This document shows, piece by piece, positions 27,218 to 64,000 of a stretch of DNA of 64,000 bases. Positions within the stretch are counted from its first letter, which is position 1. Each line of letters starts with the position of its first letter. The stretch comes from Psilocybe cubensis. Lineage: Eukaryota. A model generated the notes under the pieces. It ran no database searches, had not been told where the DNA came from, and saw only the letters and a list, made by a program, of their open reading frames with translations. The DNA lies in contig CM038999.1 in the NCBI GenBank assembly GCA_017499595.2, positions 4,216,001 to 4,280,000 on the forward strand, read 5' to 3'. The position numbers and the translations under genes are program-made.

Positions 27218-27377
27218 ATGTCAGTAATCGAGGGCTCTAACGTACTTGTCAAGCTTCGCCAGTCGTATAATGGCCTCTATGCGGGGTGCTACGTATCTGT
27301 CATGTCAGTTACACTGCTGGTTATCTCTGCTTTCACGGCTGGCCTCACTCTCACTCTCACTCCAGGCTTTACGGGGT
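27218..27377 (+). pseudogene. DUF6534-like paralog 3, truncated 12 nt into exon 2 by telomeric repeats
   Basis: Exon 1 MSVIEGSNVLVKLRQSYNGLYAGCYVSVM, intron 27304-27365, exon 2 start LYGV (as in both paralogs), then TTTAGGG repeats. Confidence 0.85.
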
Positions 27378-27405
27378 TTAGGGTTTAGGGTTTAGGGTTT
27401 AGGGT
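27374..27405 (+). repeat. Telomeric repeat tract (TTTAGGG)n
   Basis: Four perfect TTTAGGG units, G-rich strand on +. Confidence 0.95.
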
Positions 27406-27688
27406 GCCCAACGAGCAGCGAGCGAAGCGAGCTGCGAGTTGGTTAGAAAAGGCTGGATGGCCTAAGGCTTGTGGACAAAAGTGGGGGCTTGGAGAAGCTC
27501 CCTTCCACTTTTTTGCCTTTTTATAAGGCTCATCAGGTCCATATATAGCCATTTTACCTATATTAATCCGAGGTCCGAAGTTAAAGAAACCTCGGAGCGA
27601 GTTTTCACCTTTGTTGTTCCGAAGTTTGGCAATTTCTCCGAGGATTAGTAATATCTCCGAATTTTAAACTCCGCTTGAATTTCGGCTT
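27406..27688 (-). mobile_element. Short 5'-truncated 3' end of a Penelope-like element (family A)
   Basis: Lies between two telomere tracts. Same order (GA hairpin, then hammerhead) as the RT-linked element at 27736, but with different primary sequence. Confidence 0.6.
27466..27550 (-). ncRNA. Type I hammerhead ribozyme with G12->A core substitution (probably inactive)
   Basis: Minus strand: GGCU-AUAUA-UGGAC CUGAUGA GCCUU-AUAAA-AAGGC AAAA AAGUGG...CCACUU UU GUCCA-CA-AGCC. All three stems pair; GAAA reads AAAA. Confidence 0.8.
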
Positions 27689-27735
27689 GGGTTTAGGGTT
27701 TAGGGGTTTAGGGTTTAGGGTTTAGGGTTTAGGGT
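27689..27735 (+). repeat. Telomeric repeat tract (TTTAGGG)n
   Basis: About six units, one TTTAGGGG variant. Confidence 0.95.
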
Positions 27736-27799
27736 GGGAGCGAGCACCGAGCGAAGCGAGGTGCGAGCGACTAGTTTAAACTGTGAGTTTGAAGATAGA

Positions 27800-27875
27800 A
27801 AGTAGGCCAGAGGGCTGTTTGGGGGTACAAACGGCCAGCCCTTTCGTCTTTATAGACTCTTCAGTGGCTATACTT
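27800..27875 (-). ncRNA. Type I hammerhead ribozyme, intact core
   Basis: Minus strand: AAGUA-UA-GCCA CUGAAGA GUCU-AUAA-AGAC GAAA GGGCUG...CAGCCC UC UGGC-C-UACUU. Predicted cleavage between 27810 and 27809. Confidence 0.92.
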
Positions 27876-28384
27876 AGAAGGAATGTTCTGGAACATCCGA
27901 TGACAGCGCGTGAAGTGATGCTGCGCAGCTGTCATGTATCTTACCGACTATCACAAATCTGTCAATGTTTATTGTCAAGTTAGACAGGTTTCTGATGAAC
28001 AGAGTGTCACGGGTCGATGTGGCACATGGTAACCTGTCAAAAGTGGATCCAACACTTTTGTTCTTTGACATCGTGGGTTATTGACTGTGATGTGAATCAC
28101 ATGGATACAGAATACTCTGGTTACGTGGCTCCGAGTAACCATGACATGGGAATATTCTCATGTCAAGAGTATAAATAGCTTACCTGGGTCCTTACCTAAC
28201 AATCAAATGATTGATTGTTGTGAATCTTAATTGGCAGTTCATGATCCGGTCCATCAAAAATGTTTCCACGGTACTAAGGAACTTTTCCCGAAGTACTAAG
28301 TAACTTTTCCCATGTACTAAATTAGATCCGGCCCTTCACAATCACATGCCGTTCGGAAGTTCACACGCCTACCTTACTTCCTAC

Positions 28385-28460
28385 TAAGGTTAGACTTAGT
28401 TAGCTTAGGGTTGGGGTTAGGTTAGGACTTAGGGTTTAGGGTTTAGGGTTTAGGTTTAGC
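28385..28460 (+). repeat. Degenerate plus perfect telomere-like repeats inside the PLE 3' region
   Basis: TTAGGG/TTGGGG/TTAGG variants followed by three TTTAGGG-type units. Confidence 0.8.
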
Positions 28461-28571
28461 TATTTAATCCAATGTGTTGCTTGTAAGTAGATGTTTGTTA
28501 CTTTGTAGCAAGGAATACTTACGGTTAGGGTTTTTTTCTAATGCTTTACGCCTTGCACGCTAGTATTCTTT

Positions 28572-29377
28572 TCATCGGTTGTAAGATTTGGATATTCTGC
28601 CAAATTCTGGATGTTCCCTCTCTTGTGAGATTGAACGTCTATGAAGTATTATCTTGTTATCACTTTCGATACTTATCTGTTCAGCAGCTTCAACTAGAGC
28701 AGAATGATAAGTTTCATTAACGTTTTGAGTTTCGGGAACAACACCACCTTTTTCGGCAATGTCTTCATCCAGTTTACGAAAAACTGTTTTCTTCCACACA
28801 TTTGCAAGGTCGAAAAGATTAGTATTGCGTTTTTGCGATACTATCCAACGACTTCCGAGTAGTCCTATCTTCCTCAAATCCGGTACGAACTCAGTTTCTC
28901 CGTCCACGAGGATCTGTGTGAACAGCTCCGGGCGAACATCATCGAGGTCGTGAACGTAATTTGGATCTGGTTTGATAAGGGGTCTGGACGAGTCTGCACT
29001 ATACAGACCTTTCTCGGCATGTTCATACCATGCCAACCAGTACTCGGTAACAGTCTTTCCAAGTTCAGCAGCTGAAAACCAATTCCATACCTGGTCAAAT
29101 CTGGTTTTAAGTACAAGAATGGATTCGTCGTGCTCTGCAATTCGTAAAGCGAATCGCTTTTCCCAACGTTCTTGTATATTCTTCTTACACCAAGACATTA
29201 CTAGGTTTTCGGGATAGCCGCGCACCAAATAGAGAGCGTTAAGGTCTCTAATTGCTCCTATGTAGATTTCCTTAGTACTACACAACACGGCTAGCCTGGA
29301 TAACTCTCCAATGTAGACGCCACGTTTGACGTCCAAAGGATGATGTGATACCCATGGAACTTGTTCTCGGTTGTTTC
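28572..29377 (-). pseudogene. C-terminal (thumb) part of a Penelope-like reverse transcriptase; catalytic N-terminal part missing
   Basis: VPWVSHHPLDVKRGVYIGELSRLAVLCS...LYLVRGYP matches the PLE S.HP..K....E..R....CS...RGYP signature. No GIY-YIG motif visible downstream. Confidence 0.8.
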
Positions 29378-30560
29378 CTAGGCTTATTCCCCCCTGAAGG
29401 GGGGGCCTTCGTTGCATTGGGCCTCCTGTTCAGAAATCCTAAAATCTGATGCCAGATTCGGATTCCTGGACCCCAAAAACCCCCAAATACACTTTCAAAA
29501 TATTTTATTTTGTACATACGGAGGTGCTACGTAATTAAATGTGTAATTTATGGAGGCCGGCCTCCAAATTGATGGAGGCCACTGGAGGCCGGCCTCCGTC
29601 TAAAAATAACTTTTGACAGGCACTGGAGGCCGGCCTCCGTCTAAAAATAAATTTTTGACAGGCACTAGAGGCCGGCCTCCCGCCTGTCTCCCGATGCCAG
29701 TGCTCGCCGTCCCAAAGCTTGCGCTCGCCGTCCCAACGCCAGCGCTCGCCGTCCCAAAGCTTGCGCTCGCCGTCCCAACGCCAGCGCTCGCCGTCCCAAC
29801 GCTTGCGCTCGCCGTCTGCCCGACGCCTGTGCTTGCCGCTGCATGTTGTTGCGCTGCCACCTCCGGGCCGCTGCTGCTGCCGCCACCTCCACTCGACGCC
29901 TGTCGTTCAGCCGTCACCGCGTGTCATCCCGCCGTCGCCGCCTGTCGTCACGACGTCACCGCGCGTCGTCCCGCCGTCGCGTCTAGTCGCCGCCCACCAC
30001 AACACGCACTCTGCTGCGTGTTGTTGCGCCGTCACACCGGACCGCCGCTGCCACTGCCGCCTTCCCTCGCCGCCTGTCATTCCGCCGTCAGCGCGTGTCG
30101 TCCCGCCGTCGCCGTCTGTCGTTCAGCCGTCACCGCGTGTCATCCCGTCGTCGCCGCCTGTCGTCACGACGTCACCGCGCGTCGTCCCGCCGTCGCGTCT
30201 AGTCGCCGCCCACCACAACACGCACTCTGCTGCGTGTTGTTGCGCCGTCACACCGGACCGCCGCTGCCGCTGCCGCCTGCCTCGCCGCCTGTCATTCCGC
30301 TGTCAACGCCTGTCGTCCCGCCGTCGCCGCCTGTCGTCACGACGTCACCGCGCGTCGTCCCGCCGTCGCGTCCACTCGCCGCCCACCACGACACGCACTC
30401 TGCTGCGTGTTGTTGCGCCGCCACACCGGGCCGCCGCTGCCACTGCCGCCTCCCCTCCCCGCCTGTCATTCCGCCGTCGCCGCCTGTCGTCCCGCCGTCG
30501 CCGCCTGTCGCTGCCGCCGCGCTGCCTCTACTCGCCTCCTGTCGCTGCCATTTCGCTGTT
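29378..30560. mobile_element. Repeat R copy 1: hairpin-ended Helitron/Helentron-like terminus, GGAGGCCGGCCTCC palindromes and GC-rich minisatellite
   Basis: CTAGGCTTATT-C6-TGAA-G7 start. The first ~250 bp are shared with 39941 and 49608. Right boundary approximate. Confidence 0.65.
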
Positions 30561-30788
30561 TTGTCTTTGATACACCTTGGCCTTGCTGTACTGTAATTTT
30601 GTTAGATTTTTTATAACTAGTCATCTTACCCTGATATCAACTTGTGTATATCTCACGCGAGCTCTCTTGTGTAGACACCAAAAAATAAATTTATATGACA
30701 TTTTGAACAAAAAAACACGCATATATCTACATATTTTTGTTAGAATGGGCTATTCTTAAATGAAAAAACACTTACATTGACAATGTAA

Positions 30789-33700
30789 CTACAGGCCTGG
30801 GCAAACACGATAAGTTGGCACCACCGGTACGTGCCCGTTGACAAAGGCCTGAGCTCGTTGAGACGCTGCCGCCAGAAGCTTCCTACTGGGAGGAGTGCCG
30901 CGCAATATTGATTTCCATTGCACTCTTGTTAATGGCTGGGCCTGCCGAGTGCGGATGTCTTCTACGCGTTCACGGTACCATGCCTCGTTGGCAGGCGTCC
31001 ATTCCACCCATTGTGATCCGTTCATGCTGGGGGGCACCTGCCACAGGTTCGGGGGAGGGAACCACGATTTTACAGTTATTTGACCTTTAGTAGCTGAGAA
31101 AAATGTTGTTAGTGCATAAAATTGAGAATAAACAAGGAAAACATACCTGTGTACAGCGTGTAGGTGCCGCATATAATGGACAGCTCGTTCTCCGTGAGCT
31201 GGTCGTCGCAATAACACCAAGTCGTGTCGCCAGCTGGCACGATGAACCCCTGCCGGTTCTGAATGATTTCCTTAGAGGGGCCAGCCAGCCCATCGTCGAC
31301 GCTCAGAAACTCACTGGCTATCCTACCCACCAATCCACCCCTCAGCAAGGCAGCCCGACCGTGTTGTTGGTGTTTGATGATGTTCTCGCATTGCAATCGG
31401 TATGCTTCGAAGTCATCAACGCCAAATTTGTACGCTGACGGGCGGACAGATCGAGGGGTGTATGGCTCCTGGACAGTGGAGCAGCGACCCGACATTTCAA
31501 TGCCCATGAGAGTGCGACAGGGCACACCTCTCTCCAGCAGCATTTTTGTGAGGGAGTCGATGCGAGCCCAGGAGTGCTCTAACCTGAGCCGACACACGTA
31601 GAGGGCGATCTCCGCCGTTTCGACACCCAACATCCACTCGTGTTCCTCTGAACGAGGTTCTGAAAAAACAAAAAGATTCTGGTGAGGGCGGTGTATTTGC
31701 GACAGGTCCAGCAGACGAGACAGGGATGTCAGGCTGTGCGTGTTGAGATCAGACAGGGCGGCCGGCATTTCTGTGCTCGCAGGCTCGATGGAAGCCATGT
31801 AAAACATGTGGATATGTTGTCGAGCGTCCAGGGCAACTTCTGGGGTAAGTAACTCTGTAAACCCAAAGGTTTTGACAAGTTCATCCCAGTCTGACGCGGC
31901 GCAGGCTGTCGTCGTTGTGCCAGGGAGGTATCCATAGGATTGGCGCAGGCATCTGACCATATCGTTGTCGGGTGTAATGGGCAGGGGTTGCACAACATCC
32001 GTGGCGGGCGCGTCCGTGGTCATCTCAACATCCGCATTTTCATCCTCAACAGATGGGCCTGGTTCCTCCATCTCGAAATCTTCGACGACGGCAGGGGGGC
32101 TCTGTTGGACCCGCGACTCGCTCTCTGGGGAACGACGTGCTCGTGGGCGAGAGCGCGTTGCAACCTCTGGGGGTGTTGGCGAGCGACTGCGCAGGCGCCG
32201 TCCTAGCGTGGGCCGTGGGGGTGTTGTGGGTGCGCGGCGGGGTCTATCTCGCGATGACGAGGGTGTCGGAACCTCAATGACAGGCGGGTTGTTTGGAGGC
32301 AAAGGGGGTGGGGAAGGATTACGAGCGGGGGGAAGGGCCGACGTTGAGGCCACCGGCGCATCGGGGTCAGGTTCAATGGTGTCGTACCAGGGTACGCCTT
32401 CCCACTCTTCCTCGGCAGGTGCTGGTTTCGGGTGCTGCCTGGGTTGTTTTGCGGGACGTACACCTCTACCGCGGCGATGCTGGCCTCTAGCAGGCCTTGT
32501 CTGTGCCTGAATGCGCTGGTCCAACATCGCGGATGCGCCTGCCAACTCGGCTGGTGGTTCCAAATCTCGACAGAGATCCCATTCGTCTGTCACACCGTTT
32601 GTCAGGGTTTCTCCAGTTTCCCCTCTTTATCTTCACAGAATTATCTTATCCTTTCATTATCTTATCAATTATCTGATTAGATAGTTTATTTCTTTCATCA
32701 CAGCCTTCTTGCTCCACTTCTTTCTAGTAAATTCTATATGATTCCTAGTCTTACTCATCCTTTTTCTATATGATGTCACTTTTATTCTTTAACCTTCCTT
32801 TATGATGTAATGTAGAGAATATTCTAGAATAGCTGTAGAGTATAAATACTGGACTTGTAGGTAGCTGTAGCTTCAGCTTCAATCTCTTAGCATATCCACT
32901 ATCATTGGTGTGATCTCTTAGAACCATTAAATCTCTCTCACTCTCTTATTCTCTCTTTGCTCTCTTACTCTCCCTCTGCTCTCTCTCTTTCTCTCTTGCT
33001 TAATCTTTGTTGGTGGCCTTGTCACACTGATTATAGTGTTGCCCTAACACCGTTGTAGACCTTGCGGTGTGGGCGAAGTTTGGCCTCCTCGATGCTGTTT
33101 CGTGACGTTGCGATGTGTTCGCGCATGTAAACGCTGGCTCCCTCTGTGGACACCAGCGTTTTCCAGACAAATACTTTGCTACGTACCACCGATGGGTTGT
33201 TCTCTCGGTTCAGGCGAGCCTGTCTAGCTTCTGGCGTCTCTTTGGCCAGAATCCGTCGCCGTTCTTCCACCCTTGCAGCCCAGTAAGCGTCCCAGTCATC
33301 GTGCACAGAGGTCAGCAGCTTGTGGTTTTCATTCGCCAGTTCGATCATGCGCAGCGTAGGCAGGTTGGCGCTGTCAATGGCGAGCTGACGCTGTTCCTCG
33401 TCTCTCTTTTGGAGCTTTTTTTCCAATTCTTCATATGGCTGGGACATGTGCTGATCCAATGCCTCTGAGTTGTGGGCGAAATCGTTACTGAGGATAGAAT
33501 ACACCAAAGTAGTGGAGTACTCATCTCCCAGCGACTTCATCGTGAGGCCCTCCGTCGAATGAGATTTATTAAAAAATTTGCGCGCAAAGGCGGCTGCGAG
33601 AGACACGTCCATAGACTTGAACAGGTCGGTAAGTGTTGCCGCCAACAAGTCGCGCGGGGGGCGAAGCTCGAGATTGAGTATTTTGTGGGTGAGGAAGATT

Positions 33701-34536
33701 TCCTCTTCCCGCATCCGCCACGGATAATAGACTGGAACATGGTGTTCCAGAAGCCATTCGATGGGAGGGCGTGTCGCGTGGGTGCTGCTCAACTCGTAGA
33801 CCATGCCGACACGAGGGGTTCTGGCGTTAAACGAAAATACGTTGGAATGATACAAGCCATCCAGCCATACTTCTGAGATGTCAGGATGCTCAGCGCGGAG
33901 GCGTTCATGCCATGCAGGGACGGGGCTTTTGGGATCGTGCTTGATGTGCTTTGAATAGATCTCGCGACGACTTTGGGCGACGAGATACGACAGGTAGCCC
34001 ATCCACAGGATAAACGCGTTTCGGGTGGCCTCAAAGCTCCTTTGCGCGTCTGCTTCACAGCTATACCTGAGATCATAACCGAAGCTTTTGGGGCTAGGAG
34101 GTGGGGTTCCAGGAACGCGACACCATAAGCGGATCTTTTCACACAGAAGGGTGATGTTTTCATCCAATTGGCGCCATTCTTTTACGCTGTGCCACTCCAT
34201 TTCATACGTGGCCGGAGACTTGTGCGGTTTATTGCGCAAAATCTTTGGAGACCAGCACAAAAAATTAAACGGCAAGGACACGAATGATGGCGCCAAGGGT
34301 ATGAAGGCGATCCACCTGTACTGATCGTGCCAGCGCACTGGCTGTTTGACGCCCTCTAAATCCAGGTCTCGTCGCCGAGGTTCTGCTCGTGTCGCCTTTT
34401 GTTCGAAGGGGTTGGTGACGTCGACCTCAGCGGGTGGGATGATGACGACACGCTTGCAGTTGGGGGACACGTATATGGTGCCCTTCTGGACAAACGCGGA
34501 CCCTTGGGCCCAATCAATGTGGGTTTGCTGGGACAT
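30789..34536 (-). pseudogene. Large (~1080 aa) agaric hypothetical protein gene interrupted by a solo LTR; intron 31146-31094
   Basis: Removing 32600-33049 plus one TSD fuses the ORFs in frame (KVYNG-VTDEWDLC). C-terminal motifs GRAALLRGG, DD.LTENE..IICGTY, SWFPP..W...WTPANE.WY. Confidence 0.75.
32600..33049. mobile_element. Solo LTR (450 bp)
   Basis: TGTCAGGG...CCCTAACA termini, perfect 5-bp TSD CCGTT (32595-32599 and 33050-33054), AT-rich with TATAAATA. Confidence 0.9.
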
Positions 34537-34637
34537 CTGCAGCAGAGTAAGTAACAAGCATATGTGGGCAACGAACGTGAACACTTACGGTGGGGGCAGA
34601 GCAGAACGGTTAGGACGATGGCGATGGCCTTAGATGG

Positions 34638-35155
34638 CTGCAGAAGAGATTCTGCAGTGGCCTCAGATCGCTACAGAAGATCTTCTGTAGTTTTCAGAGG
34701 TCGGGGGTGTTGGTGTCGGTGGACGCGTCTGGCAACAAGGGCGGAGGAGAGAGCGAGGGTGGCTACAAGCAGAACGGTTGGGATGATCGGGATGGATCCA
34801 GATGCCTGCAGAAGAGCTTCTGCAGTCGCCTCAGATCACTACAGAAGATCTTCTGTAGTTCTCAGAGGTCGGGGCCATGGGTGTCGGTGGACGCGTTTGG
34901 AAACAAGGGCGGAGGAAAGAGCGAGGGTGGCTACAGAAGAGCTTCTGTAGCCTATCTCGGATGGTACACGCGAAGTCGAAAATGGGGGTGGAGGGAAGAA
35001 CGAGGCTGGCTACAGAAGAGCTTCTGTAACGATTCTCGGACGGCTGACGTGAAGTGTCAAACGTCGGGGCAGGGAAGAGCCAGAGTGGCTACAGAAGAGC
35101 TTCTGTAACCTTTCTGGGATGGCAGACGCGGCGTGCTACAGAAGAGCTTCTGTAG
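34638..35155. repeat. Array of ~8 copies of the palindrome CTACAGAAG-AG/AT-CTTCTGTAG
   Basis: Copies near 34638, 34671, 34806, 34839, 34931, 35010, 35089, 35136. Confidence 0.9.
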
Positions 35156-35297
35156 TGTGCGTGCGTGCTAAAGAAGGAAGTGGACTTAGCGTTGGAAGGT
35201 TGAAAAAACGCCCAGAGCGGAGTTTCAATTAATCACGTGACCGCTCGCGGGCCCTGTTGATCGCAACCCCCAGAGTGTTCCTGTTCTCCATCCACCT

Positions 35298-35787
35298 CCA
35301 AAGCTCTTTGGTCGTGGATCGCGGGCCAACAGTACCAAAGCTCTTTGGTACTGCCTAGCCCATCCTCCTCCGTGTCGCACCCCCCCTCACGGTGCTCTGA
35401 TCCTCAAGAGATCTCAGGTTCTATCCACCTCCAAAGCTCTTTGGTCGTGGATCGTGGGCCGTCAGTACCAAAGCTCTTTGGTACTGCCTTGTCCATCCTT
35501 CTCCGTGTCGCACCACCCCTCACGGTGCTTCGATCTTCAAGAGCTCGCTCCTGCCAATGCCCCCCCACATATCCATCCGCCTCCAGAGCTCTCTGGTCGT
35601 GGTTCCCCCCAACGCTGCAAACCAAAGCTCTTTGGTTTGACTCCACTTCGTCCAACGATTCCGTCGGCCTGGGATACGTGTGCCAGTCGACCTCCTACCT
35701 TGATTCTGTGATCGTGAGTCGATATACCCGCCTCCAGAGATCTCTGGTCGTGGGCTGTCGCGTTATCGTGCAACCAGAGCTCTCTGG
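35298..35787. repeat. Array of ~8 copies of the palindrome CCAAAG-CT-CTTTGG / CCAGAG-CT/AT-CTCTGG
   Basis: Copies near 35298, 35335, 35431, 35468, 35583, 35622, 35734, 35774. Confidence 0.88.
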
Positions 35788-44700: not shown

Positions 44701-44737
44701 TGCATGAGATTTGTGCTTCAACAATTGTAACACCAAC

Positions 44738-44902: not shown

Positions 44903-45062
44903 GTATTTTAGCGCCCAAACCTCTCACACGCCCACTGCCCATGGCCACTCCTTCCATCCATCACCAATACCACCGCATACCCCTCCGCAGAAGTCTTGAC
45001 AGCAAAGAATTGCGCCATTGTTCGGTTACTTCTCGACCAATCGCGCATGTTCAGGCGATTTT

Positions 45063-52282: not shown

Positions 52283-52530
52283 GATTCGACGACGAGCGGG
52301 GTGTATACGCAGCGTCTGGCTGTGCCCGTTGAGCAGTGGTGTTCTAGTGTGTGAACAGGTGCGCATGTGAGGGGTGTAAAACTGTGTATGATGGGTTTAA
52401 AGAGGGCTTTTTGTAAGAGGTGCTGGTGAGTGTTTGCGTGTGTGAATACGAGCGAGCAAACATTGTCTTACCCTCTATATTTCTACACCAGTATCTATGC
52501 TTTTCACAACTACCACTATCCCTCACCCGT

Positions 52531-53604: not shown

Positions 53605-54229
53605 CAAGAATGAGGCTACGCAAGTGTAACAATAAGCAAGAACAATAAGACATGTCGATATCGACACGACGACAGATAAGAAATGAATAGGATGAGTAAG
53701 AAAGAAGTGTATGACGAAGGTGAATGGTAATACAGATTAGATAAAAGAAGCAAGGATGGGTCAGAAAGCATAGAAGATTGGTAAGACAAAGACAATAAAA
53801 GCGCAAGAGACAATAGAAAAGATATATATAACACAAAAGGATGAGTAAGACAAACCAAAAATAAGTTGGAATGAGTAATCCGAAGCATGACGCTGAGTAA
53901 GACCATTGAATTGATAAAAATAAAGTTGACAGTCCGGCTGTGCAAGGCAGGGTAGAAAGCTGTGCAGTTTGATGTTTGACTGATCCGTCGCATAGCCTTG
54001 ATGATCCGACGAAGTGACATGATCCGGAATAACGTGGCTCCCATGTGACAAGTGTTGATAAGATAAGATGTGTGGATGACTTATGGAAAGAATGACTGCT
54101 TGGGTTGAGGGCGTCGTGTGTAGATCCAAAATGAACATCTCATCTCCAATCAGGATTGGGGTATGATATCCGTCCCAAACTTGAGAAATCAACCGTCCCC
54201 GGTTGCGGAAGGAAGGGGGGGGGAATAGA

Positions 54230-57200
54230 TTAGAAGTCGTCCATGTCGTCGCTCCATGTGTCTTCATCTTCCTCACTCTCATGTCCAAGTTCTCTGATCA
54301 TCCGGTCTAGCTGTGGTCGAGGAATGACTGAACCGTCTCGTGGAAAATAGTGAAGAAGTCGGAAAGCAGCTACGCCTTGAGCCAGTTGCGTACCATTAAG
54401 TTCTCTAAGCACATATGATCCTCCTCGTGTCTGTCGTACAACTTCGTAAGGTCCAAGATATCGTGGCTTGTGCTTGCGATTCATCTCCTTCTCAACTTGA
54501 CTGTTCCTGACTAGGACTAGATCACCAAACTTGAAGCTTTCTTGTCGAAGACGTCGAGCAAATCGTCGTTCAAAAGTAGCTTTGGATTGAAGTCGTGATT
54601 GTTTCAGAACGTCGGCTATGTTGGCTAAGTCTTCATCTCGTTTCATGAGTTGTCGAACACGGAGAGCTAAGAGATCTTCGGAACTCATTCCTTGTCGGAA
54701 TCCATCAACTAGAAATGTGGCTTCAAGGAGATCAAATGGAAGAACAGGATGAACACCATGCATGACGTAGAAAGGGGAATGTCCAGTAGAGCGTCGAGTG
54801 ATGCATTTGTCAGAGAAGAGTGTGTGATGAACGTACTGTGGCCAGTCTAGAGGTCGGTCGCCGCAAGCTTTGAGAATGGATTCACGGAAGTCAATGTGAC
54901 CACGTTCAATAGATCCATTGGCTTTAGAGTTGTAAGGAGAAATGCAAACTTGAGGAATGCCGTACTTTTCCATCAAAAGACTGAAAGCGCCAGAGACTTC
55001 TACTCCATTGTCTGTGCGTACAATAGCAATAGCACCATATCGGCATATGACTTCTTCCCAAAAGAAAGTGGCCAGCTCTTCGGAACGTAAAGACTTGAGG
55101 GCACGTCCTTCAGGTGCACGTGATAAGTCGTCTCGGGCTAGGACTACGTATCGGAAGCGTCCAGATTTGGGCATGTACATGACGTTGACATTGATGATAG
55201 TGAAGATAGTTGGGGGAGCTGTGATAGTGATAGGAACTTCGCTTTTCTTGGTGGATCTGATCTGACATTCATGGCAAGTAGCGAGATGATGCTTGATATC
55301 CTGAAAAAGAAATGGCCAGAAAAACCGAATGCGAATAACTCCAAACACACCGTATACTCCTCGATGTCCAAGTTCTTCATGAGCTTGAGTAAGAATGAGA
55401 CATCGCTTGTCTGGATCTAGAATAACCAAGAGTGGAGGTCTTCCTTGTCGTCGTCGATAGAGTTGATCATCTTTGAGATAGTACTGAGTAGCGCGAGCAA
55501 GGAATCGTCGTTGGGACTGCAAATTGGGAAAAGGGGGTATAGTTTGGTCTGTAAGAAATTGAAGAATTTGTCGAAGTGTCCGTTCTTGAGAAGAAGAAGA
55601 AGCAATAAAAGAAGGAAGCGAGATAGAGTCATACGATGGCATAGAAGAGGGAGTAAAAAGAAAAGTAGGGAAAAATTTGACCGTATTAAGAAGAGCAATA
55701 TCGTCGAGCCAGTCATCATCTTCTTGAGGTTCTTCTAACTCTTCAGAAGTTGGTTGTCGTCTTGAAAGTCCATCAGGTCCACGATGATTACCGGCCTTTA
55801 CATGGATGAGCTTGAAGTCAAAGAGAAGAATGCCTTGTATCCATCGATTCATACTAGCACTAGGCTGCAAGTCAGGCTGATTGAGCATGCCTTTGATGTA
55901 CTTGGCGTCGACTTCAACATAGAGGTTCTTGACTCCAATAAGATAGAGGCGGAATTCTCGAAGAGCACGGAAAAGACCATATAACTCGAGCTTGGGCTGA
56001 CTGTATCGTGCTTCTCGTGGATTAAGTGAGATAGAACCATAGCGGACAGGTCGTCGGATGCCTTCTTTGTCAAGTTGATAGAGAATGATACCAATAGCAA
56101 TGTGAGAAGTGTCCACAGCAAGAATAACTGGGCGATCGGATGAATAGTCAATAGAAGTGAGAACAGGAGGATTGGAAATGATTTCTTTGAGAGTTTGGAA
56201 AGAGTCTTCTCGTTGTTGAGTCCAGACAAAGGGTTCGTCCTTACGATAGAGTTCTGTGAGCGGTCGGACAAGGGCTGAGTAATTTCTGATCCAAACACGC
56301 ATTGTTCCGCATAGACCTAGAAAGGATCGGATGTCGTGAACAGACTTTGGTCGTGGCCAATCAGTGACTTTCTGTATCTTGCTCTGATCGGGTAGTCGTC
56401 CATCCGGAGTGCATAACTGTCCAAGAATAAGAACTTCAGGCTGAGCAAGCTGAGTCTTTGGTCCAGAAAATGTAGCACCAGCACATCCCATGCGATGCAT
56501 AACTCGATGAACATCTTGAGCATGTTCCCAGACAAATCGTCGTATTCCTGGATTTTCTGGAAGTGTTTCTGGATTGCCGTCCTCGTCTAAGTACTGTGTT
56601 GGAGGGCCTTTGATAGGAACATCGTCGATAAAGACATTGGCTACGTGAGGGATCTCATCACGAAGAATGAAGGTGGTATAGGCTTGAAATTCCGCTACTG
56701 CATTCGTATATCCCATAGGCATTGAAGTAAGTCGAAGAGGTCCAATAGGCGACTGGAATGTGGTAAGATCTCAGCTCATAGGATGGATTTTGCGTGCGTC
56801 ATATCCCCAATATAAGTCAAAGACCGTGTAAATAGAATGACCAGCAAAGGGAACCACAAAGTCGTCAAGAACTGGAGGAACTCCTGCGTCTCGATAGGAA
56901 ATAGAGTTAAGAATCTGCAGATCATGAACTAGACGGATAGCACCAGATGTCTTCTTCTTGACCCAGAAAATTGGAGAGCGATACGGAGCTTGGCTTGGTT
57001 CGTATACTCCAGCGTCTATCTTTTCACGTAAGAGACTGATAACTTGATCCTTGATGCCGGGTGGAATAGGAATATTTCGGACTACCCAGGGCTCGTGATC
57101 CTCAACAGGAAAGATGTATGGAGAGAAGTATTCTTCAGAAAATGTTCCACGTTCGGACTGATGAAAAGCGAGTGAGCGTTCATTGAGTTTAAGAATATGA

Positions 57201-57500
57201 AGGAAAAGCTTTTCTTCTTCCGGCCATAAGAATTTGTTGGCGTTAATGTTCATTGATTGTATGCGTTCAAGAGTGAGTCTGGTTGTTGGCGTAAAGGCAG
57301 GGGGATGGAGTGGGAGAGGTGGGAGAGATAATAAGGGATCAACAGGAATTCGTCGTATAACTTTGGCCGATTCTGGAGTAACCCGATTTATAGGTCTAAC
57401 TTTCCGATCGACTCGTTTATAGGCTGTATTGGCAGAAGAGGGGGAAAGAATAGGTGATATGAATTGATTCATGGAGGCTCGGAAGGTTGATAGTGTCGAT
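54230..57500 (-). pseudogene. pol (RT, RNase H, integrase) with an in-frame TGA at 56771-56773
   Basis: YKRVDRKVRP, VHDLQ.LN, FDLYWGY, HPMS*DLTTFQSP, PMGYTN, FIDD, LAVDTS, ELYGL, HHCC zinc finger, TDNG, GSIERGH, YLGPY. Confidence 0.92.
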
Positions 57501-58306
57501 CCTGACGCGGCAGTGAATACAAAACCAATTGTAGGAGAGCTTGACGACCTTGCCGAATTAGTTTGGTTGACGGTGGGTTTAGCAGTAATATCTGAATTGA
57601 GTGACCATGATCTCGCATAAATGCTTTGATCTATCCGAAATTTCTGTAGGTCTTGACCCATCAGAGGTAATGGAGTGGTCGTCCTTCTTATCTTGTCCGT
57701 AAGCTTGATTTTTCGCTCTTTGTGGATAAGATGAAGCCCTTCCCGATTCTGTAGGAGTTTGAGGTGTATTGGAGGCGTGATGGTGGTGTATATTGGAGAT
57801 AGAGATTCCGTATAGCATTCCTTTGGGAGGTTGCGTGTGTTTCTCCAAGAACTCTGCAATAGGTGACCTGAGGATTTGTTTGCGGACTGAAGTGGTAAAG
57901 CGGGGGTGGAACAAATAAATAAAAGGGAGGAATAAATAAAGGTTAGTTTAACGACTTTTCGGTCGACGTACATACAAATGGATAAAGTGGAAAGACAATG
58001 AAAATAAAAGGTAAAGGAAAAGGTTGTATGGCGTGGAGTTGCCATTGAGAGTGTGAATGTGAAGAAAAGGCGCATAAAAGAAAAGTGGAGGCGTTCAAGA
58101 ACTCGTTGCACAAATGAAAAATCTACATAAGTGTCCGTGAAATGAAAAAGAGAAACGCAAAATGTGGAAATAAAATAGAAGGTGGGATAAAGGCATAACG
58201 ATGAGGAAGAAGAAACAGCAAAGGTGACAAAGAAAAATTGAGGGGATCGGAGAACAAAGAGAGGGCGTTGAGGAAGCAAGCTGATGTCCATGCACCATCC
58301 AGATAG

Positions 58307-61300
58307 TCAGTACAATGTGTTGGCGTCCAAGGGATGTTCTTCCGTGTTGTCGATACCAAAGGGACTTTCTTCTCCATACTGATAGTACCATTCGTTTCCA
58401 TCATCCATATTTGAAGCTCGTGATTCGTGCATTGTGCTGGTTATGGGAAGAGGTAAAAGGGAAGAATTGTGGTCGACCTCTTTGCCATTTTGGGCGATTC
58501 GTAGCTCTTCTTCATCCTCGTTTAATGGCTCCTTCGGACTGTTGTGGGCTACTCGCAGAGGATGTACCAAAGCTTTCGGGCCTCGATGATGCTCGTCTAC
58601 ATTTGCGGTGACCGTCGATGATACACGTGTTTCCTGGTGAATCATAATCGAAAGAGGCGTCTCTGGAAGAGCAGAACTTCGGGAATGAGGTTGGGGAATA
58701 GGAGAAGCATTTTGAGAGCGAATGGATTGGGGAATAAAATGAGTCCAGGATGCTGAGTGACGTTGGCCCATTGGATAGGCACTGACTGAAGCAGAGTGGT
58801 TAGATTGAGACGAGATACCAGTGCGACTGAAGTGTAGAATAGTTGGAGTCGTCGTCAAGTTTATATGACTGTCTCTCTGCGGATAAACATAATGGACAAA
58901 GGCCGTTCCTGTTCGGTCAGAAACAACACGAGTAGGAGAAGAATAAGTGGCGTTGTATAGAATCCAGTCTTCAAAGCGCAAGTGGGGGTTGAGCATTCCC
59001 ATAGCCGTAAGGTGAGTATTGTCAGAAGAGAATTGAATAGCTTCTACTTTGGGTGAGCTCAATTGTTCCATTTCTGGATCGTCGTCAGCTGGTTCTTCTT
59101 CATGTGGGTTGTTATTGTCTGAAGTGTGGGATTTGATGGACGGATTGACAGATGGTGATGGTGGCTGTTCTATTTGTGGGGCCTCATTTGTGGAATCGTA
59201 AGATGGTGTGGAAATATGACCATAATGGGCTGTCGCATTGAATTGAGAAGTTCCCGAGTCATCTTGATACATTGAGTCATAATCGGAAGCGTAGAGACCG
59301 TGAGAGGAGTCCTGAGTCGAGTCATATTCGCAGTTGGAGTCAGAGAAAGAGGGTGCATCTTGTGAAGTGGATAAGTCCTCATTTGGGTTAGCAGATTCGT
59401 GCCGATTCAGAGATTGTTGCCTAGTAAGGATAGATAACTCGATCATGGAAGGGGTAGGTGATGGATAGCGAAGGTCGTCCAATAATTCACCAGGTTCTAG
59501 ATCTTCTTCAATTTCACCTTCTTCGGCATCCGGATTAGCTAAGGAGAGGTCGTTGTGTGCTAACATTGTGTGGGGGGTCTTGTCGTAAATGGTATCCGTG
59601 AAGTAATGCCGGTTGTGCTGAGTATCAGGTGTCACAAGGAATTTCTGCTCACGTGTAGGATCTTTGACGTCATAGAAGGCAATGAAGGTCCCTTCGGGTC
59701 GTTCTAGAATGTCCACATAGTTGTCACGGGTCCATGGACGTCCCAAGAGTATATCAAACTGGACTTTGTCGGATACATAGCAATGAGCACGCGTCCTGAC
59801 TGTACCAATATCAAGTTGAACATTTCCAACGAATCCAAGCATGTGGGATTTGCCACCATGAATATCAACCATAACAATAGTATTCCGGCTGTCCATCGGC
59901 AACTTGACAATCTTCTTCCAAGCCTGTTCGCTTAGAATGTTCTGCGTAGATCCACTGTCAATCAAGGCATTGAGTTCGTGACCATTACACATTAATGTGA
60001 TTCGAAGAAGGGGCTCGTGAGCGCGAAGGGATTCGACTGAATTGGTCTCGTGCATGTATTGAACAGGTACGTCCTTTTCGGCACTGCGAATGATGTCTAG
60101 AACTTCCTTATCGGAAAGCTTTAAGTTGCCGTTTGCCAATGAAGCTTTGAATTCGTCGACAGTAAGGGTCTTGCCTTTGATGCTGTTGATAAGAAGGGTC
60201 CTAAGGTCCTTTGAAACTCCAAGTAACTCGCCGAACGTCGCATTAACGGGTTGATTAAGGCATCGTCTGAGAATGGCCATAGTGTCGACAGTTTGGGATA
60301 TATCAGAGACACGTTTCTGAGGGGCTGCACGTGGCTTAGTAACTGATTTGCCTCGTTCTAGACTAGGAGTGACATCTTCCATGATTTGATCATCATCGGC
60401 CGGATCAAAAACCTCGTGTCGTTGCGCAGTCTCGGGATGTTCCGTTGGATTTGCCCTAATCGGGACATTGGGTTGAGCTTGTTTGACAGGAATTGATGGA
60501 TTCATTTCGGCAGAAGGTTGATTAATTGACGGGATTGGGACAGGTTGAATGGAAGTGGAGCTAGGCACGTTGTTCGGCAATCCAGAGTTAGCCGGACGTT
60601 TAAGAATAGATGGGATCTGAGAAGAATCCTTAGCTTTACTCATTTCCGCTCGCTTCCCTTTGAGATACGCGGGTTCCGGAGGTACCACAGCGTCCATGAC
60701 CTGTTTGCGTGCAGCACGTGTTCGCTTTTCAGTTGGGATTCTATTACCAGGACCTGCCAGCGTAAACTCAAACTCGTCTTCTCCATCCCAGGTTCCAATG
60801 TCGTCCTCTTCTTCTTCTGCGACCATGGCTCTGTAGTTCTTGAACATCTGACCATAATATGCTTCGGATACGGCTATGCTTTTGGTAGCAACTTGAGGAG
60901 GAGGAGGAGGAGGCTGTTGTTGACGAAGGACTGCTTGTGCGATTGACTCTCCATTCTGGCGAATAATGCGGGATCCATCAGGAAAGACAACTCGATTGCT
61001 ACTGTCTCTGGAAATGAGCTTGCGGTTCGTAAGATCAATGAGCGTTGGGCAGTTGTTGATTCCATGGCCTTGTTGATGGCAACCATAGCAGATGATCTCG
61101 GATGCAGACTGACGTGGTGGTCGTGGTGCTGGAGGTGCTGTCTGACTTGCGATTGGGACTGGCTGAGCTGGCTGTGCACTTGGATTCATAATGGCCGGAG
61201 CAATGAGCATGTTAGCAAGAGCGGGTTCCAACTTGATGGCGCGAAGATAGTAAATGGCGTACGAAGAATCATGGATGGTGAGCTTCGACATCTGCTTGAT

Positions 61301-62188
61301 CAAGTTCTCCACTTCGTCGTCCTTGTGTGCTTGCTTCTCTTCCTTGTCTAAATCCTGAAAGATGCGCTTGGTCTCTTCCGGGGGATTGTATGGACGTTCA
61401 CGGGCATCGCGCGTCTCGATGTTAGGAAACATCTCCTGTAAGTACTTCTTGATCTCGTCAAAGACTGATGAGCGCTCTGAATACGAATCCTTTGGAGGAA
61501 TAAGAGACGTGAAGGGGCGTGCAGAAGGGTTGTCAAAGATTCCAACGTCAAAGCGGTCTCGTTTAAAGATGATTTCAACTGCCTTGGTGACGTCTTCAAT
61601 AGAAAAAGGTGAGGAGAGATCGATATGAGGATTAAAGACCATGATCTTGCTTTCGAGCGCAGGTCGGAGGGATTCATTGATTCCTAGCCAGAAGTATTGA
61701 TTGTATTCCGTCTTGGATATCTTGTTGTTGTTGAGAAGCCAACCAGCGATGCGAATGTATTGCTTCTGATACTCGCGGAAGTCATCAAGAGAACGCATAG
61801 AAAGATTGGAGTGTTGAAAAGCGTAAGCACGAAGAGTACTCAACGTGAACTTCTGCGTCGTCCTAGCATGGTCAAAGATCTTGAGCATATCAGTCTTGAG
61901 TCGTTCCCATTGCTTGGCATGGTGGCTGGGTAAACCTTCAATGATTTCTCTGCTCTCTTGGTTGCAGCATTGAACCATGTATCGTACTTTGTCGTCGTCG
62001 AGAGTGACATTGTACTGATCAAAAATGCGGTCGCAGTGATCCAAAAAGTTCTTGACGTCGACGTAAGATCCAGTGAATTTTGGAGCAGCACTAGATTTAG
62101 GAACGAGCATATCGACAGGAGTACGTTGGATGATGGTAGTAGCCATAGTGGGAGTAGAGGATGGAAGCGGATTGCCAGAATCAGTCAT
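58307..62188 (-). CDS. Gag-protease polyprotein of the Gypsy element
   Basis: APKFTG Gag start, zinc knuckle CYGCHQQGHGINNC, aspartic protease LIDSGS...ILLGRPW, long acidic C-terminal tail. Confidence 0.9.
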   Translation of the reverse strand: MTDSGNPLPSSTPTMATTIIQRTPVDMLVPKSSAAPKFTGSYVDVKNFLDHCDRIFDQYNVTLDDDKVRYMVQCCNQESREIIEGLPSHHAKQWERLKTDMLKIFDHARTTQKFTLSTLRAYAFQHSNLSMRSLDDFREYQKQYIRIAGWLLNNNKISKTEYNQYFWLGINESLRPALESKIMVFNPHIDLSSPFSIEDVTKAVEIIFKRDRFDVGIFDNPSARPFTSLIPPKDSYSERSSVFDEIKKYLQEMFPNIETRDARERPYNPPEETKRIFQDLDKEEKQAHKDDEVENLIKQMSKLTIHDSSYAIYYLRAIKLEPALANMLIAPAIMNPSAQPAQPVPIASQTAPPAPRPPRQSASEIICYGCHQQGHGINNCPTLIDLTNRKLISRDSSNRVVFPDGSRIIRQNGESIAQAVLRQQQPPPPPPQVATKSIAVSEAYYGQMFKNYRAMVAEEEEDDIGTWDGEDEFEFTLAGPGNRIPTEKRTRAARKQVMDAVVPPEPAYLKGKRAEMSKAKDSSQIPSILKRPANSGLPNNVPSSTSIQPVPIPSINQPSAEMNPSIPVKQAQPNVPIRANPTEHPETAQRHEVFDPADDDQIMEDVTPSLERGKSVTKPRAAPQKRVSDISQTVDTMAILRRCLNQPVNATFGELLGVSKDLRTLLINSIKGKTLTVDEFKASLANGNLKLSDKEVLDIIRSAEKDVPVQYMHETNSVESLRAHEPLLRITLMCNGHELNALIDSGSTQNILSEQAWKKIVKLPMDSRNTIVMVDIHGGKSHMLGFVGNVQLDIGTVRTRAHCYVSDKVQFDILLGRPWTRDNYVDILERPEGTFIAFYDVKDPTREQKFLVTPDTQHNRHYFTDTIYDKTPHTMLAHNDLSLANPDAEEGEIEEDLEPGELLDDLRYPSPTPSMIELSILTRQQSLNRHESANPNEDLSTSQDAPSFSDSNCEYDSTQDSSHGLYASDYDSMYQDDSGTSQFNATAHYGHISTPSYDSTNEAPQIEQPPSPSVNPSIKSHTSDNNNPHEEEPADDDPEMEQLSSPKVEAIQFSSDNTHLTAMGMLNPHLRFEDWILYNATYSSPTRVVSDRTGTAFVHYVYPQRDSHINLTTTPTILHFSRTGISSQSNHSASVSAYPMGQRHSASWTHFIPQSIRSQNASPIPQPHSRSSALPETPLSIMIHQETRVSSTVTANVDEHHRGPKALVHPLRVAHNSPKEPLNEDEEELRIAQNGKEVDHNSSLLPLPITSTMHESRASNMDDGNEWYYQYGEESPFGIDNTEEHPLDANTLY

Positions 62189-62363
62189 AGCGTAAACCAG
62201 TTACAGAGTCAGAAAGTGTTGCCTAGAATTGTTGCCTAAAGTTGCCTAGAGAATAGACCAGCGAAGTGAAATAACCTGTAAAGAAAAAGAGTCGAAATGG
62301 ATGGAATGGAAGTGATAAAGTGGTAGATTGCTGTGTTCCTAATACAAAATCCTAATTAACCCT

Positions 62364-62381
62364 CCCTCGCGGTGGGCTCCA
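62364..62381 (-). promoter_or_regulatory. Primer binding site
   Basis: TGGAGCCCACCGCGAGGG begins 2 nt after the CA end of the 5' LTR. The primer tRNA was not identified. Confidence 0.7.
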
Positions 62382-62383
62382 GA

Positions 62384-63457
62384 TGAAGATCGAAGTTTGT
62401 GATTGGTTATAAACTATATGTAATCCAACAAACACAAACTCCAGGGAAAGAGTGGTCCAGACTGGATAGAACGAAACCTTCTCCTAAGTTTCTTAAGGGA
62501 GGACGCTGCCTAGGATTTAAGTAGATTAGGATGGTGTGGATTGTGAAGGGTAACGAAAGCGAAATAGTAAGAAGAGGATAACCGGGTCGTCTGGGTACGA
62601 TAGTAAATAAGCCTTCCGAAAATGGGATGGAACCGTGGAATTGGATGGCGGGTGTATATGGAAAGCGTGAAGAAGATGCGTAGATTGCGTATGAGAAATC
62701 AATAAATGTGAATCTTAGAGGGGTTGTCTGAAGTGAGTGGGGAACGTTCCAAGGGGAGATGAGGAGATGACTAGGAGTTGGGATGTCGTTGAATGGCTGA
62801 ATCTTGATAAGCGGATGGTAAAGGCGAAAGTGTCCTTAAATTGACAATCTTTCTGATGCTTGGAATGAAGCTATACGTTGCGGGAGTATCAACTGAATCA
62901 AGGGTGAAAGACTAAGTCTGTCTCGAATGAAATCACTCCAGATGAGTTGACGGAGGGAAAGAATGTCTTGAATACACTCCTAACGGCAATGGTTGGAAGG
63001 TGTAGAAGGAGTAGGAGCGGTGACGGATTGAACGGAGGAGGGAAAGTAGGGAAGTACTGGATGTCTGGATAGAAGTTGGATATTCAACGCTGAGAAGAAG
63101 AGGCGTTGGATGAGAAGGATGACTGGTCTCGGATGAAATCCTCTCTTAATGGAAAGCGAGATGACTTCGGATGAATGGAAGTAAACTTGGTTTCGACGGA
63201 GGGTGGAACTGATGACTGAAATAGACTTGGGTTTGGGCTTGGCTTGAACTTGAACTTGGAATTGAAATGAATCAATGTGGATTGACTTGAAATTGACTTG
63301 ACTTGGATGAAAATTGACTTGCTTTGAAGAAAGTGGGGACTGGGTGTAACTTTCCTGTCATTTCGTGTAATTCTACTACAGCTTTTATACTAAAAGCTAC
63401 GTGAACAAAATACCAATCTGAGCTACTGAAAACCGAGTCATATACTGTACAAAGTGT
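62384..63457 (-). repeat. 5' LTR, truncated
   Basis: Identity to the other LTR stops at ...ACAAAGTGT, where TAGGGTTTAGGG begins. Confidence 0.92.
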
Positions 63458-63490
63458 TAGGGTTTAGGGTTTAGGGTTTAGGGTTTAGGG
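63456..63490 (+). repeat. Telomeric repeat tract (TTTAGGG)n
   Basis: TTAGGG followed by four TTTAGGG. Confidence 0.95.
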
Positions 63491-64000
63491 GGGGAGCGAG
63501 CACCGAGCGAAGCGAGGTGCGAGCGACTAGTTTAAACTGGGAGTTAAAATGGAAAGAAGCCAGAGGGCTGTTGATTGATATCAGCAGCCAGCCCTTTCGT
63601 CTTTATAGACTCTTCAGTGGCTATTCTTAGAAGGAATGTTCTGGAACATCCGATGACAGCGCGTGAAGTGATGCTGCGCAGCTGTCATGTATCTTACCGA
63701 CTATCATAAATCTGTCAATGTTTATTGTCAAGTTAGACAAGTTTCTGATGAACAGAGTGTCACGGGTCAATGTGGCACATGGTAACCTGTCAAAAGTGGA
63801 TCCAACACTTTTGTTCTTTGACATCGTGGGTTATTGACTGTGATGTGAATCACATGGATATAGAGTACTCTTGTTACGTGGCTCCGAGTAACCGCGACAT
63901 GGGAATATTCACATGTCTAGAGTATAAATAGCTTACCTGGGTCCTTACCTAACAATCAATTGATTGATTGTTGTGAATCTTAATTGGACAGTTCATGATC
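63491..64000 (-). mobile_element. 3' end of another family B Penelope-like element (runs off the window)
   Basis: Closely similar to 27736-28245, including hairpin and hammerhead. Confidence 0.85.
63554..63628 (-). ncRNA. Type I hammerhead ribozyme, intact core
   Basis: Minus strand: AAGAA-UA-GCCA CUGAAGA GUCU-AUAA-AGAC GAAA GGGCUG...CAGCCC UC UGGC-UUCUU. Confidence 0.92.

Follow-up and report, generated by a model that had tools for sequence, protein, structure and literature searches.

The subject of this analysis is a 64,000-nt window of the Psilocybe cubensis genome (assembly GCA_017499595.2, contig CM038999.1, positions 4,216,001–4,280,000 of the forward strand), numbered here from its own first letter. 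Ordinary genes lie across its left 27 kb, including a NACHT/NPHP3_N protein and importin repeats (Pfam), and the best matches of the window's proteins are 93–98% identical to proteins named as Psilocybe cubensis. From position 27374 rightward, 36 kb follow in which tracts of telomere repeats are interleaved with cut-off Penelope-like elements (PLEs), a truncated helicase gene, three copies of an element with a Helitron-like end, here called Z, and a Gypsy retrotransposon. This region is probably a subtelomere built up layer by layer, an interpretation carried by the telomere tracts and the PLE modules, the latter including part of a reverse transcriptase (RT) gene with its 3' untranslated region (UTR):

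27374–27404, plus strand: telomere tract T1, about 4.4 units of TTTAGGG, adjoining single-copy host sequence
27405–27688, minus strand: module A, 284 bp, the 5'-truncated 3' end of another PLE-like family, ending in a hairpin and bearing a decayed hammerhead
27689–27735, plus strand: telomere tract T2, 6.6 units
27736–28400, minus strand: element X, a PLE 3' region with a predicted type-I hammerhead at 27806–27864
28400–28460, plus strand: T3, a degenerate telomere-like tract, probably internal to a composite PLE 3' region
28461–29377, minus strand: Coprina-type RT, the last 271 codons (coding from 28575) and a 114-nt 3' UTR, cut by the first Z copy at residue ~906–908
44740–44900, plus strand: T4, three tandem units, each a ~20-nt motif (CCACAAA...ATTAG) plus a degenerate telomere-like tract
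63456–63490, plus strand: telomere tract T5, about 5 units
63491–64000, minus strand: second copy of X, predicted hammerhead at 63558–63617, running off the window

The tracts share one orientation. Double TTTAGGG units with at most one mismatch give 17 matches, all on the plus strand, against 0.01 expected, and exact single units number 19 on that strand versus three scattered CCCTAAA on the other. T1, T2 and T5 are perfect or nearly perfect, T3 and T4 degenerate; the units of T4 look like the product of several abortive additions or of a slipped duplication. The telomere repeat of the related Stropharia rugosoannulata is reported as TTTAGGG (PMC8874372), so that the tracts can be regarded as the host's own telomere repeat. 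A preliminary description of this DNA, made from its letters without database searches, had already placed such tracts at 27374, 27689, 28430, 44760 and 63456, and all five places recur here on the plus strand. The same description took the stretch for a chromosome end, which it is not in the strict sense: since the G strand runs rightward from 5' to 3', the end should lie to the right of the window, whose last 544 bp belong to the second X copy (63457–64000), and the terminal telomere is therefore not seen in it.

The RT fragment identifies the layers between the tracts. Its open reading frame (ORF; 28575–29429, minus strand) corresponds with 96% identity to residues 906–1176 of a 1176-aa RT protein (P0003). 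As the preliminary description had noted of the PLE, the N-terminal part of the RT is missing: 271 of 1176 codons are kept, and tblastn with four full-length relatives finds the remainder nowhere in the window. Among 26 aligned relatives of the RT, D573 K574 N575 and Y846 I847 D848 D849 are invariant or nearly so; both motifs lie before residue 906 and hence outside the part retained here. Pfam RVT_1 matches five of the 26 at E≤0.01, and a GIY-YIG or other endonuclease domain none of them (Pfam). A profile search of solved structures with the RT family returned a weak match to the Drt3a RT only (E 0.0078), which is uninformative for PLEs versus other RTs.

Wider comparison drew on 80 metagenome loci related by RT, mostly contigs of 4–5 kb with one element each. 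Telomere repeats of the C strand (at least two units) lie on the RT sense strand in 39 of these loci, downstream of the RT in 26 and upstream in 14, and repeats of the G strand in none; in the window, correspondingly, A, X and the RT module each follow a tract on the plus strand. Hammerheads were sought with a strict type-I descriptor of our own (CUGANGA, helix II of at least 4 bp, GAAA, helix III of at least 5 bp, H, helix I of at least 3 bp), which matches the sense strand in 34 of the 80 loci and the antisense strand in none. In the window it finds the two X copies and nothing else, and in 50 shuffles nothing. These copies are 94–95% alike (63457–64000 is 94% like 27700–28246), with an identical hammerhead core and a hypervariable distal loop of helix III. 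On the minus strand of X the hammerhead is followed by ~70 nt including a hairpin and then by CCCTAAA repeats, and in seven metagenome loci the corresponding distance to the terminal repeats is 41–104 nt. Module A has a terminal hairpin similar to that of X and the remains of a hammerhead, in which CUGAUGAG is retained and the GAAA box carries A in place of G. By motifs and ends, the modules with predicted ribozymes are thus EN-deficient (endonuclease-deficient) PLEs of the Coprina type. In five loci (L008, L021, L030, L046, L075) hammerheads lie both upstream and downstream of the RT ORF, a sign that other fungi, too, have terminal direct repeats or elements arrayed head to tail.

The four closest relatives (L003, L004, L013, L055; 72.7% nucleotide identity across the RT part) carry (CCCTAA)2 ~117 nt after the RT stop and a hammerhead ~560 nt further, followed in L055 by terminal repeats as well. 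Order and spacing are the same in the window, where the RT stop is followed by 114 nt, T3, X with its hammerhead and a tract. One composite 3' half may therefore comprise the RT fragment, T3 and X, with T3 probably an internal part of it instead of a former chromosome end. Against a purely composite form, X has about twice the abundance of the RT part, and reads contain arrays of X, tract and X; evidently the composite and a separate X both exist. Most of the five tracts thus retain the role of interleaved telomere layers that they had been assigned at first, while the one at 28430 is likely internal.

Sequencing runs extend this picture beyond the single assembly. The interval 25500–29540 was compared with contigs of runs X1, X3 and X8 and with raw reads of run X18 (run labels unrelated to element X), the last independent of the window assembly; 15 of 68 joints and 24 of ~324 loose ends are listed from it. 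Depth in X18 is ~60 on the unique flank (20–83 by bin), ~265 on A (~4–5 times single copy), 980–1570 on X (~16–26 times), 640–750 on the RT part and 780–870 at the RT/Z boundary, corresponding to ~4 to 26 copies of the modules of this interval at 90% likeness or more. The low bins of the flank coincide with a 402-bp indel (26732–27135) in the last single-copy sequence before T1, which is skipped in an X1 contig and in 13 X18 reads with one T between.

Junctions recur in the reads together with their variants. The junction of flank and T1 is present in 88 X18 reads, with a tract 28 nt longer than the window's; 152 reads pass 27689 into a longer version of A; most other copies of T2 have longer tracts (1639 and 437 reads); and 607 reads from other copies continue the RT beyond 29379. 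At least ten different junctions in reads or contigs lead from a cut-off element through telomere repeats into a new X or A, with cut points at 28097, 28178, 28185, 28438/28452, 28617, 29379 plus 25 nt and 29528 (the last inside Z) in X18, and at 28234, 28913 and 29245 in X1 contigs. None of the 15 joints listed involves a change of strand. Contigs that hold the unique flank up to 27371–27374 continue distally for 754 (X1), 6972 (X3) and 3391 (X8) letters, and no listed piece of these records falls on 27375–29540. The initial assignment of the layers to EN-deficient, ribozyme-bearing PLEs with telomerase tracts, on the minus strand and with 3' ends towards the centromere, is borne out by this recurrence in X18.

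The same data bear on a more trivial explanation, in which the multi-copy X, RT, Z and helicase sequences were mis-chained by the long-read assembler and the 36-kb order is unreal. All modules except the flank are indeed multi-copy (4 to ~26 times unique depth in X18), no listed record spans 25500–29540, and the best run holds 0.65 of the sampled words. Yet the flank/T1 junction has about single-copy support in its 88 reads, the A/T2/X junction is bridged by X1 and X8 contigs and 23 X18 reads, and about one in ten of the reads crossing 29378 is not RT, as expected for one RT/Z junction in ~11 copies. With read support for the junctions reaching as far into the window as 29540, an assembly artefact is very improbable.

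The best explanation, to which we give a probability of roughly 0.7, is that the region is a subtelomere with the chromosome end to its right, built by terminal loss, telomerase addition and terminal retrotransposition of EN-deficient PLEs. The host chromosome would have been cut at 27374 and then healed. PLE RNA ending in CCCUAAA repeats would anneal to the G-rich overhang, which would prime reverse transcription, and copying from these 3' repeats would leave PLE copies on the C strand, with the 3' end towards the centromere and often 5'-truncated distally; each truncated copy would then be recapped by telomerase. This mechanism is established for the PLE family and is here extended to the window, where polarity, truncations and tracts are observed directly, as are their recurrence in reads and the difference between strains at 27374. 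Breaks at 27374, ~44760 and 63457 would all have been healed by telomerase, and the stack presumably lies near a present-day chromosome end.

Among the layers beyond the PLEs, the Z element deserves the closest attention. Its three heads are:

29378–30600, minus strand: Z1 head, a GC hairpin, 7-nt spacer and CTAG, with 42-bp palindromic repeats and a GC-rich minisatellite
39941–40690, minus strand: Z2 head, ending in TTAG, not CTAG
49608–50290, minus strand: Z3 head, ending in CTAG, flanked by T

The minus-strand end of Z consists of a G/C hairpin of 6–7 bp with a loop of 2–4 nt, a spacer of 7–8 nt and then CTAG (TTAG in Z2). Helitron 3' ends are defined as a GC-rich hairpin, a 5–8 nt spacer and CTRR in the description consulted (PMC4289320), a definition that Z1 and Z3 satisfy. 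What had been called a hairpin-ended DNA element thus has a subterminal hairpin followed by CTAG, that is, a Helitron-like 3' end and not a hairpin-closed one. The descriptor used for such ends is permissive (20 matches in the window versus 5.8 in shuffles), and among its matches GC-rich stems lie exactly on the repeat boundary in Z1 and Z3 only. The base after the Z end is G in Z1, A in Z2 and T in Z3, which departs from the Helitron rule of insertion at A/T. No Helitron_like_N or PIF1 domain occurs in ORFs of at least 50 aa within 27–53.7 kb, no Helitron 5' end was recognised, and an exact-pattern scan of metagenome contigs for the Z end gave no matches. Autonomous copies with such a gene could be located in other parts of the genome. 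A Plavaka/KDZ transposon was also considered for the Z unit and rejected, there being no Plavaka domain in the window.

The left flanks of the three copies are mutually unrelated: cut RT at Z1, cut helicase gene at Z2 and sequence of no identified kind at Z3. Beyond 650–1150 bp the three units share nothing but one 320-bp piece, 75% alike between 45057–45376 and 51986–52282, which contains an intron-like GT...AG portion and is embedded in otherwise unrelated stretches. Further copies are visible in reads, where X cut at 27780, 27839, 28158 or 28199 is joined directly to the Z end (29377–29382) with 0–3 shared letters; a fifth such row, at 27773, is probably the first junction read a second way. 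The letters shared at RT/Z1 are CT, seen directly against the 607 reads that continue the RT, and those at the junction of helicase gene and Z2 appear from the next codon to be CT as well. In X18 the Z end varies in position by up to 4 nt, and 168 reads enter it from heterogeneous flanks (agreement 0.42). Its polarity is the same in all seven instances, three in the window and four read-derived X/Z junctions.

Between and beyond the Z heads lie genes and other sequence:

30792–34536, minus strand: P0064-like gene, complete, three exons, 1075-aa protein of a large fungal family without a name
34600–35543, no strand: tandem repeats of 168, 79 and 133 bp between the divergent gene pair
36202–39940, plus strand: tlh1-type subtelomeric RecQ-like helicase gene, residues to 1186 of 1634, cut just after Walker A
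40691–44739, no strand: no convincing ORF or domain
44901–49607, no strand: no identified content apart from the shared piece at 45057–45376
50291–52530, no strand: no identified content, between the Z3 head and the Gypsy element

The exons of the helicase gene (36202–39953, plus strand) correspond to residues 3–1186 of a 1634-aa protein (P0055, named tlh1 by its source) with zf-C2H2, DEAD and Helicase_C domains; one cluster lists seven near-identical fungal members. The gene is cut directly after the motif GTGKGKTMLV, with the rest of DEAD and Helicase_C missing; the remaining 448 residues are nowhere in it, in agreement with the early observation that the gene lacks its C-terminus. The divergent P0064-like gene belongs to a family with 955 representatives at E≤0.001, and its 1075-aa product has no Pfam domain. 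As this gene is complete, not every module is truncated. Of the initial statement that all modules share one polarity and lack their distal part, the distal loss therefore holds for the RT, the helicase and probably the long terminal repeat (LTR) of the Gypsy element, and fails for the P0064-like gene. At another locus an RT fragment, a tlh1 fragment and a P0064-like model extending into a GC-rich repeat occur together (P0236, P0219, P0214), and this second set of the same neighbours marks the P0064-like/tlh1 pair as a repeated unit.

Several observations accompany the pair. The repeats of the divergent promoter region (34600–35543) hold 8-bp palindromes, e.g., TACAGAAG..CTTCTGTA. Relatives of the P0064-like protein at other loci (P0216, P0215, P0070; 31–36% identity) are fused to or adjoin a Plavaka transposase with DUF6830, and the family may thus be an accessory gene of Plavaka/KDZ transposons. 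An ESM Atlas search with a 517-aa exon gave scores of at most 0.88 to unrelated clusters and was dropped. The Pfam scan covered 127 ORFs of at least 78 aa in 27–53.7 kb and 81 ORFs of 50–77 aa in 40.6–52.5 kb, and within 27–53.7 kb, apart from the modules given here, it detected no RT, helicase, Rep or transposase. Between 40 and 53 kb nothing matches the 80 PLE loci (blastn, tblastx). ARAGORN found no tRNA. In the gene-bearing part, positions 1–10000, to the left of the NACHT gene (10272–11852, minus strand), are rich in short tandem repeats (well over 100 TRF rows with a score of at least 30), and old dispersed duplications of 74–82% identity pair 13299–14702 with 18584–19989 and 16098–16361 with 21938–22198.

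The outermost layer before T5 is an LTR retrotransposon:

52531–63457, minus strand: Ty3/Gypsy element, with a gag–protease–RT–RNaseH–integrase frame at 54230–62200
52531 to 53604, or probably 54191, minus strand: its 3' LTR
62384–63457, minus strand: its 5' LTR, cut or flush at the telomere tract

Asp_protease, RT_RNaseH, Integrase_H2C2 and rve occur in Gypsy order (Pfam), and the frame is open for 2656 codons but for two in-frame TGA (58307–58309 and 56771–56773). The latter interrupts the RT motif region, which explains why RVT_1 goes undetected; a variant genetic code for the two codons was set aside in favour of ordinary decay, as neighbouring genes read normally. About 350 codons between protease and RT do not look protein-like. 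The LTR stretches 52531–53604 and 62384–63457 are 99.3% alike, their identity ends precisely at the start of the telomere tract, and a target-site duplication is absent. A polypurine-tract-like motif, GGGGACGG, followed by TG and noticed by eye 30 nt after the pol stop, suggests an LTR of ~1661 bp, with the 3' LTR reaching 54191 and the 5' LTR lacking ~587 bp. The end of the LTR had been described as missing; the LTR does abut the tract, and its truncation is probable in the light of this motif.

With all layers in place, the proposed history can be completed: between PLE layers, a repeated subtelomeric unit of Z head, P0064-like gene and divergent tlh1 would have come to lie, and two further Z-headed units and the Gypsy element would have followed, each ending up without its distal side. 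An old subtelomere that became interstitial through fusion or translocation, and no longer extends any end, would be compatible with the degenerate T3 and T4, the two in-frame Gypsy stops and a window without a terminal array. The near-perfect T1, T2 and T5 argue against such a relic, as do X copies 94–95% alike and LTRs 99.3% alike, and T1 differs in length between the window and X18, while the block is absent distal to 27371 in X3 and X8 contigs. Tracts in good order, high likeness of copies, and the differences in T1 length and between strains all point to recent activity, making an internal relic improbable.

A more serious competitor concerns everything except the PLEs. Nested ordinary insertions and two terminal breaks could have produced the same order if Z is a minus-strand Helitron and nothing but PLEs was ever added terminally. 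Z1, with the P0064-like and tlh1 genes as cargo or neighbours, would have inserted into Coprina, and Z2 into tlh1, before a break in Z2 near 44760 was healed; Z3 would then have inserted and received the Gypsy element, and a break at 63457 would have been healed, all missing distal parts being lost in these two breaks. The preliminary description had offered nested insertions with a single break at 63457 as its alternative, which survives in this modified form with breaks at ~44760 and 63457. Helitron 3'-end structure in two of the three Z copies, exactly on the repeat boundary, speaks for it, as do internal sequences that differ among Z units as in Helitron families and the telomere-like tracts at 44740–44900 and 63456; in Botrytis cinerea strain Vv3, moreover, Helitron-like elements are reported to flank TLH genes (10.1101/2022.03.07.483234). 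It accords less well with the lack of a Rep or helicase domain (ORFs of at least 50 aa, 27–53.7 kb) and of a 5' end, with a T flank after the Z end in one of three copies only, with an end ragged by up to 4 nt and sharing 0–3 letters, unlike precise transposase joints, and with a single polarity in three window copies and four X/Z junctions from reads. The permissiveness of the descriptor (20 versus 5.8) also counts against it. On balance such a nested history appears unlikely, though far less so than an artefact or a relic.

More speculative still is the possibility that Z itself heals chromosome ends. Z would then be a unit derived from a Helitron and carrying TLH; eroded ends would capture its single-stranded 3' end (...CTAG-3'), with the chromosome 3' end annealing to the last 0–3 nt of the Z strand and priming its copying. 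This doubtful scenario would explain why the polarity is constant, why the end of Z is fixed yet slightly ragged, why its neighbours are cut at arbitrary points and why A/T specificity is missing. If true, it would make Z the DNA counterpart of PLE RNA, with a rolling-circle element, telomerase and PLEs alternating in the rebuilding of one end. More generally, Z may represent the capture of a fixed end at an eroded chromosome end or a strongly polar insertion with distal loss, and the data choose neither. Few events are required, and the end structure is accounted for, if Z inserts as an ordinary polar Helitron and distal sequence is lost in two breaks; the ragged end, the microhomology, the lack of A/T specificity and the polarity in seven of seven cases agree with capture of the 3' end through end joining or microhomology-primed synthesis. 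Of the initial proposal that telomerase, PLEs and a hairpin-ended element extend this end in turn, the alternation of telomerase and PLEs is upheld, while extension by Z stands level with insertion followed by distal loss. Terminal addition of Z would amount to a third, DNA-based mode of chromosome-end healing and would connect rolling-circle elements with units of the TLH/Y' type; with simple insertion of Z, the region would be a common subtelomere of rapid turnover.

Several points weigh against a subtelomere built by PLEs and telomerase. The window contains no terminal telomere, and the distance to the end is judged from strand polarity and gene content; it is possible that T3 and T4 were never chromosome ends. 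The joints and loose ends beyond those listed could include opposite-strand junctions. The simplest reading of the X1, X3 and X8 contigs, namely that those genomes carry other single-copy sequence distal to 27374 and that the window chromosome was cut there and healed, concerns distal letters that are unread. Rfam places no family at gathering score anywhere in the window; its Hammerhead_3 model reaches X at E 0.25, below that score, and among the 80 related loci the 15 searched with Rfam (65.9 kb) yield no match at E 0.05. With Rfam matches below threshold, the hammerhead of X is a predicted ribozyme by our descriptor and by conservation. Two further database proteins (P0217, P0229) match the window at distinctive residues and are apparently its own gene models, not independent copies. 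The intervals 40691–44739, 44901–49607 and 50291–52530 have no identified content, and the longer Gypsy LTR is suggested by one motif found by eye.

Much of the locus has precedents. EN-deficient Athena and Coprina PLEs are described as attaching to G-rich overhangs through reverse-complement telomere repeats next to a hammerhead (PMC8557442). Coprina flanked by telomere repeats is reported at 13 chromosome ends of Ascochyta lentis (Coprina-1_Alen; PMC13159263), and for Agaricus bisporus (var. burnettii) PLEs are reported at telomeres, and RecQ helicases, some copies complete and others truncated, in subtelomeres (PMC7473861). The P. cubensis elements resemble Coprina and Athena as characterised by Gladyshev and Arkhipova (2007; cited through PMC8557442) in an RT with DKN and YxDD and no endonuclease, in reverse-complement telomere repeats beside a hammerhead at a 3' end that faces the centromere, and in 5'-truncated copies separated by tracts. 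They differ in their TTTAGGG repeat, in a 60-bp telomere-like tract that separates the RT from the hammerhead part within the 3' region, and in X, which is about twice as abundant as the RT and forms its own arrays of X, tract and X.

The Terminons of bdelloid rotifers are giant telomeric units based on Athena. The region shares with them tens of kb of co-oriented sequence, with EN-deficient PLEs, telomere repeats and extra genes. Five internal tracts, intron-bearing genes on both strands, an LTR element and three Z ends with unrelated interiors set it apart, and it does not qualify as a single unit; the 36 kb read as a stack of separate events instead of one Terminon-like transcribed unit. 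With TLH, tlh1 and yeast Y' units it has in common a multi-copy subtelomeric RecQ-like helicase that carries C2H2 fingers at its N-terminus and occurs both complete and truncated. It differs from them in the divergent pairing with a P0064-like gene, neighbours that recur in protein models of a second locus, and in the Helitron-like end on the centromere side.

For Z, the nearest parallels come from Botrytis cinerea, where a Helitron-like element is reported to flank TLH genes in nearly all subtelomeres of strain Vv3 (10.1101/2022.03.07.483234), and from cnidarians, for which subtelomeric Helitron derivatives are reported (PMC11934779). Helitron-type sequence at subtelomeres beside TLH copies is thus shared with Botrytis, where, as far as the published account goes, the call is made by helicase domain; here the label comes from the 3' end structure alone, and no Rep or helicase domain of that kind lies in the window. 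The available portions of the Botrytis and cnidarian accounts do not describe a polar joining of the microhomology type to cut-off PLEs. For Psilocybe, no printed description of this type of locus and no mention of 'Penelope-like' was found (supplements lying outside the search), and the literature on Psilocybe together with TTTAGGG consists, as found, of the Stropharia paper and an unrelated primer.

The core of the locus is therefore a new instance of a known chromosome-end architecture, and the Z unit with its polar, microhomology-type junctions is the only part that may be new. The layering of PLEs and telomerase provides a clear natural record of the loss and rebuilding of fungal chromosome ends in a lineage with the plant-type TTTAGGG repeat, and extends what is known from Agaricus and Ascochyta. 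Z is worth following for its discrete Helitron-like end, joined in one polarity and with microhomology to cut-off telomeric retroelements and to a cut-off tlh1.

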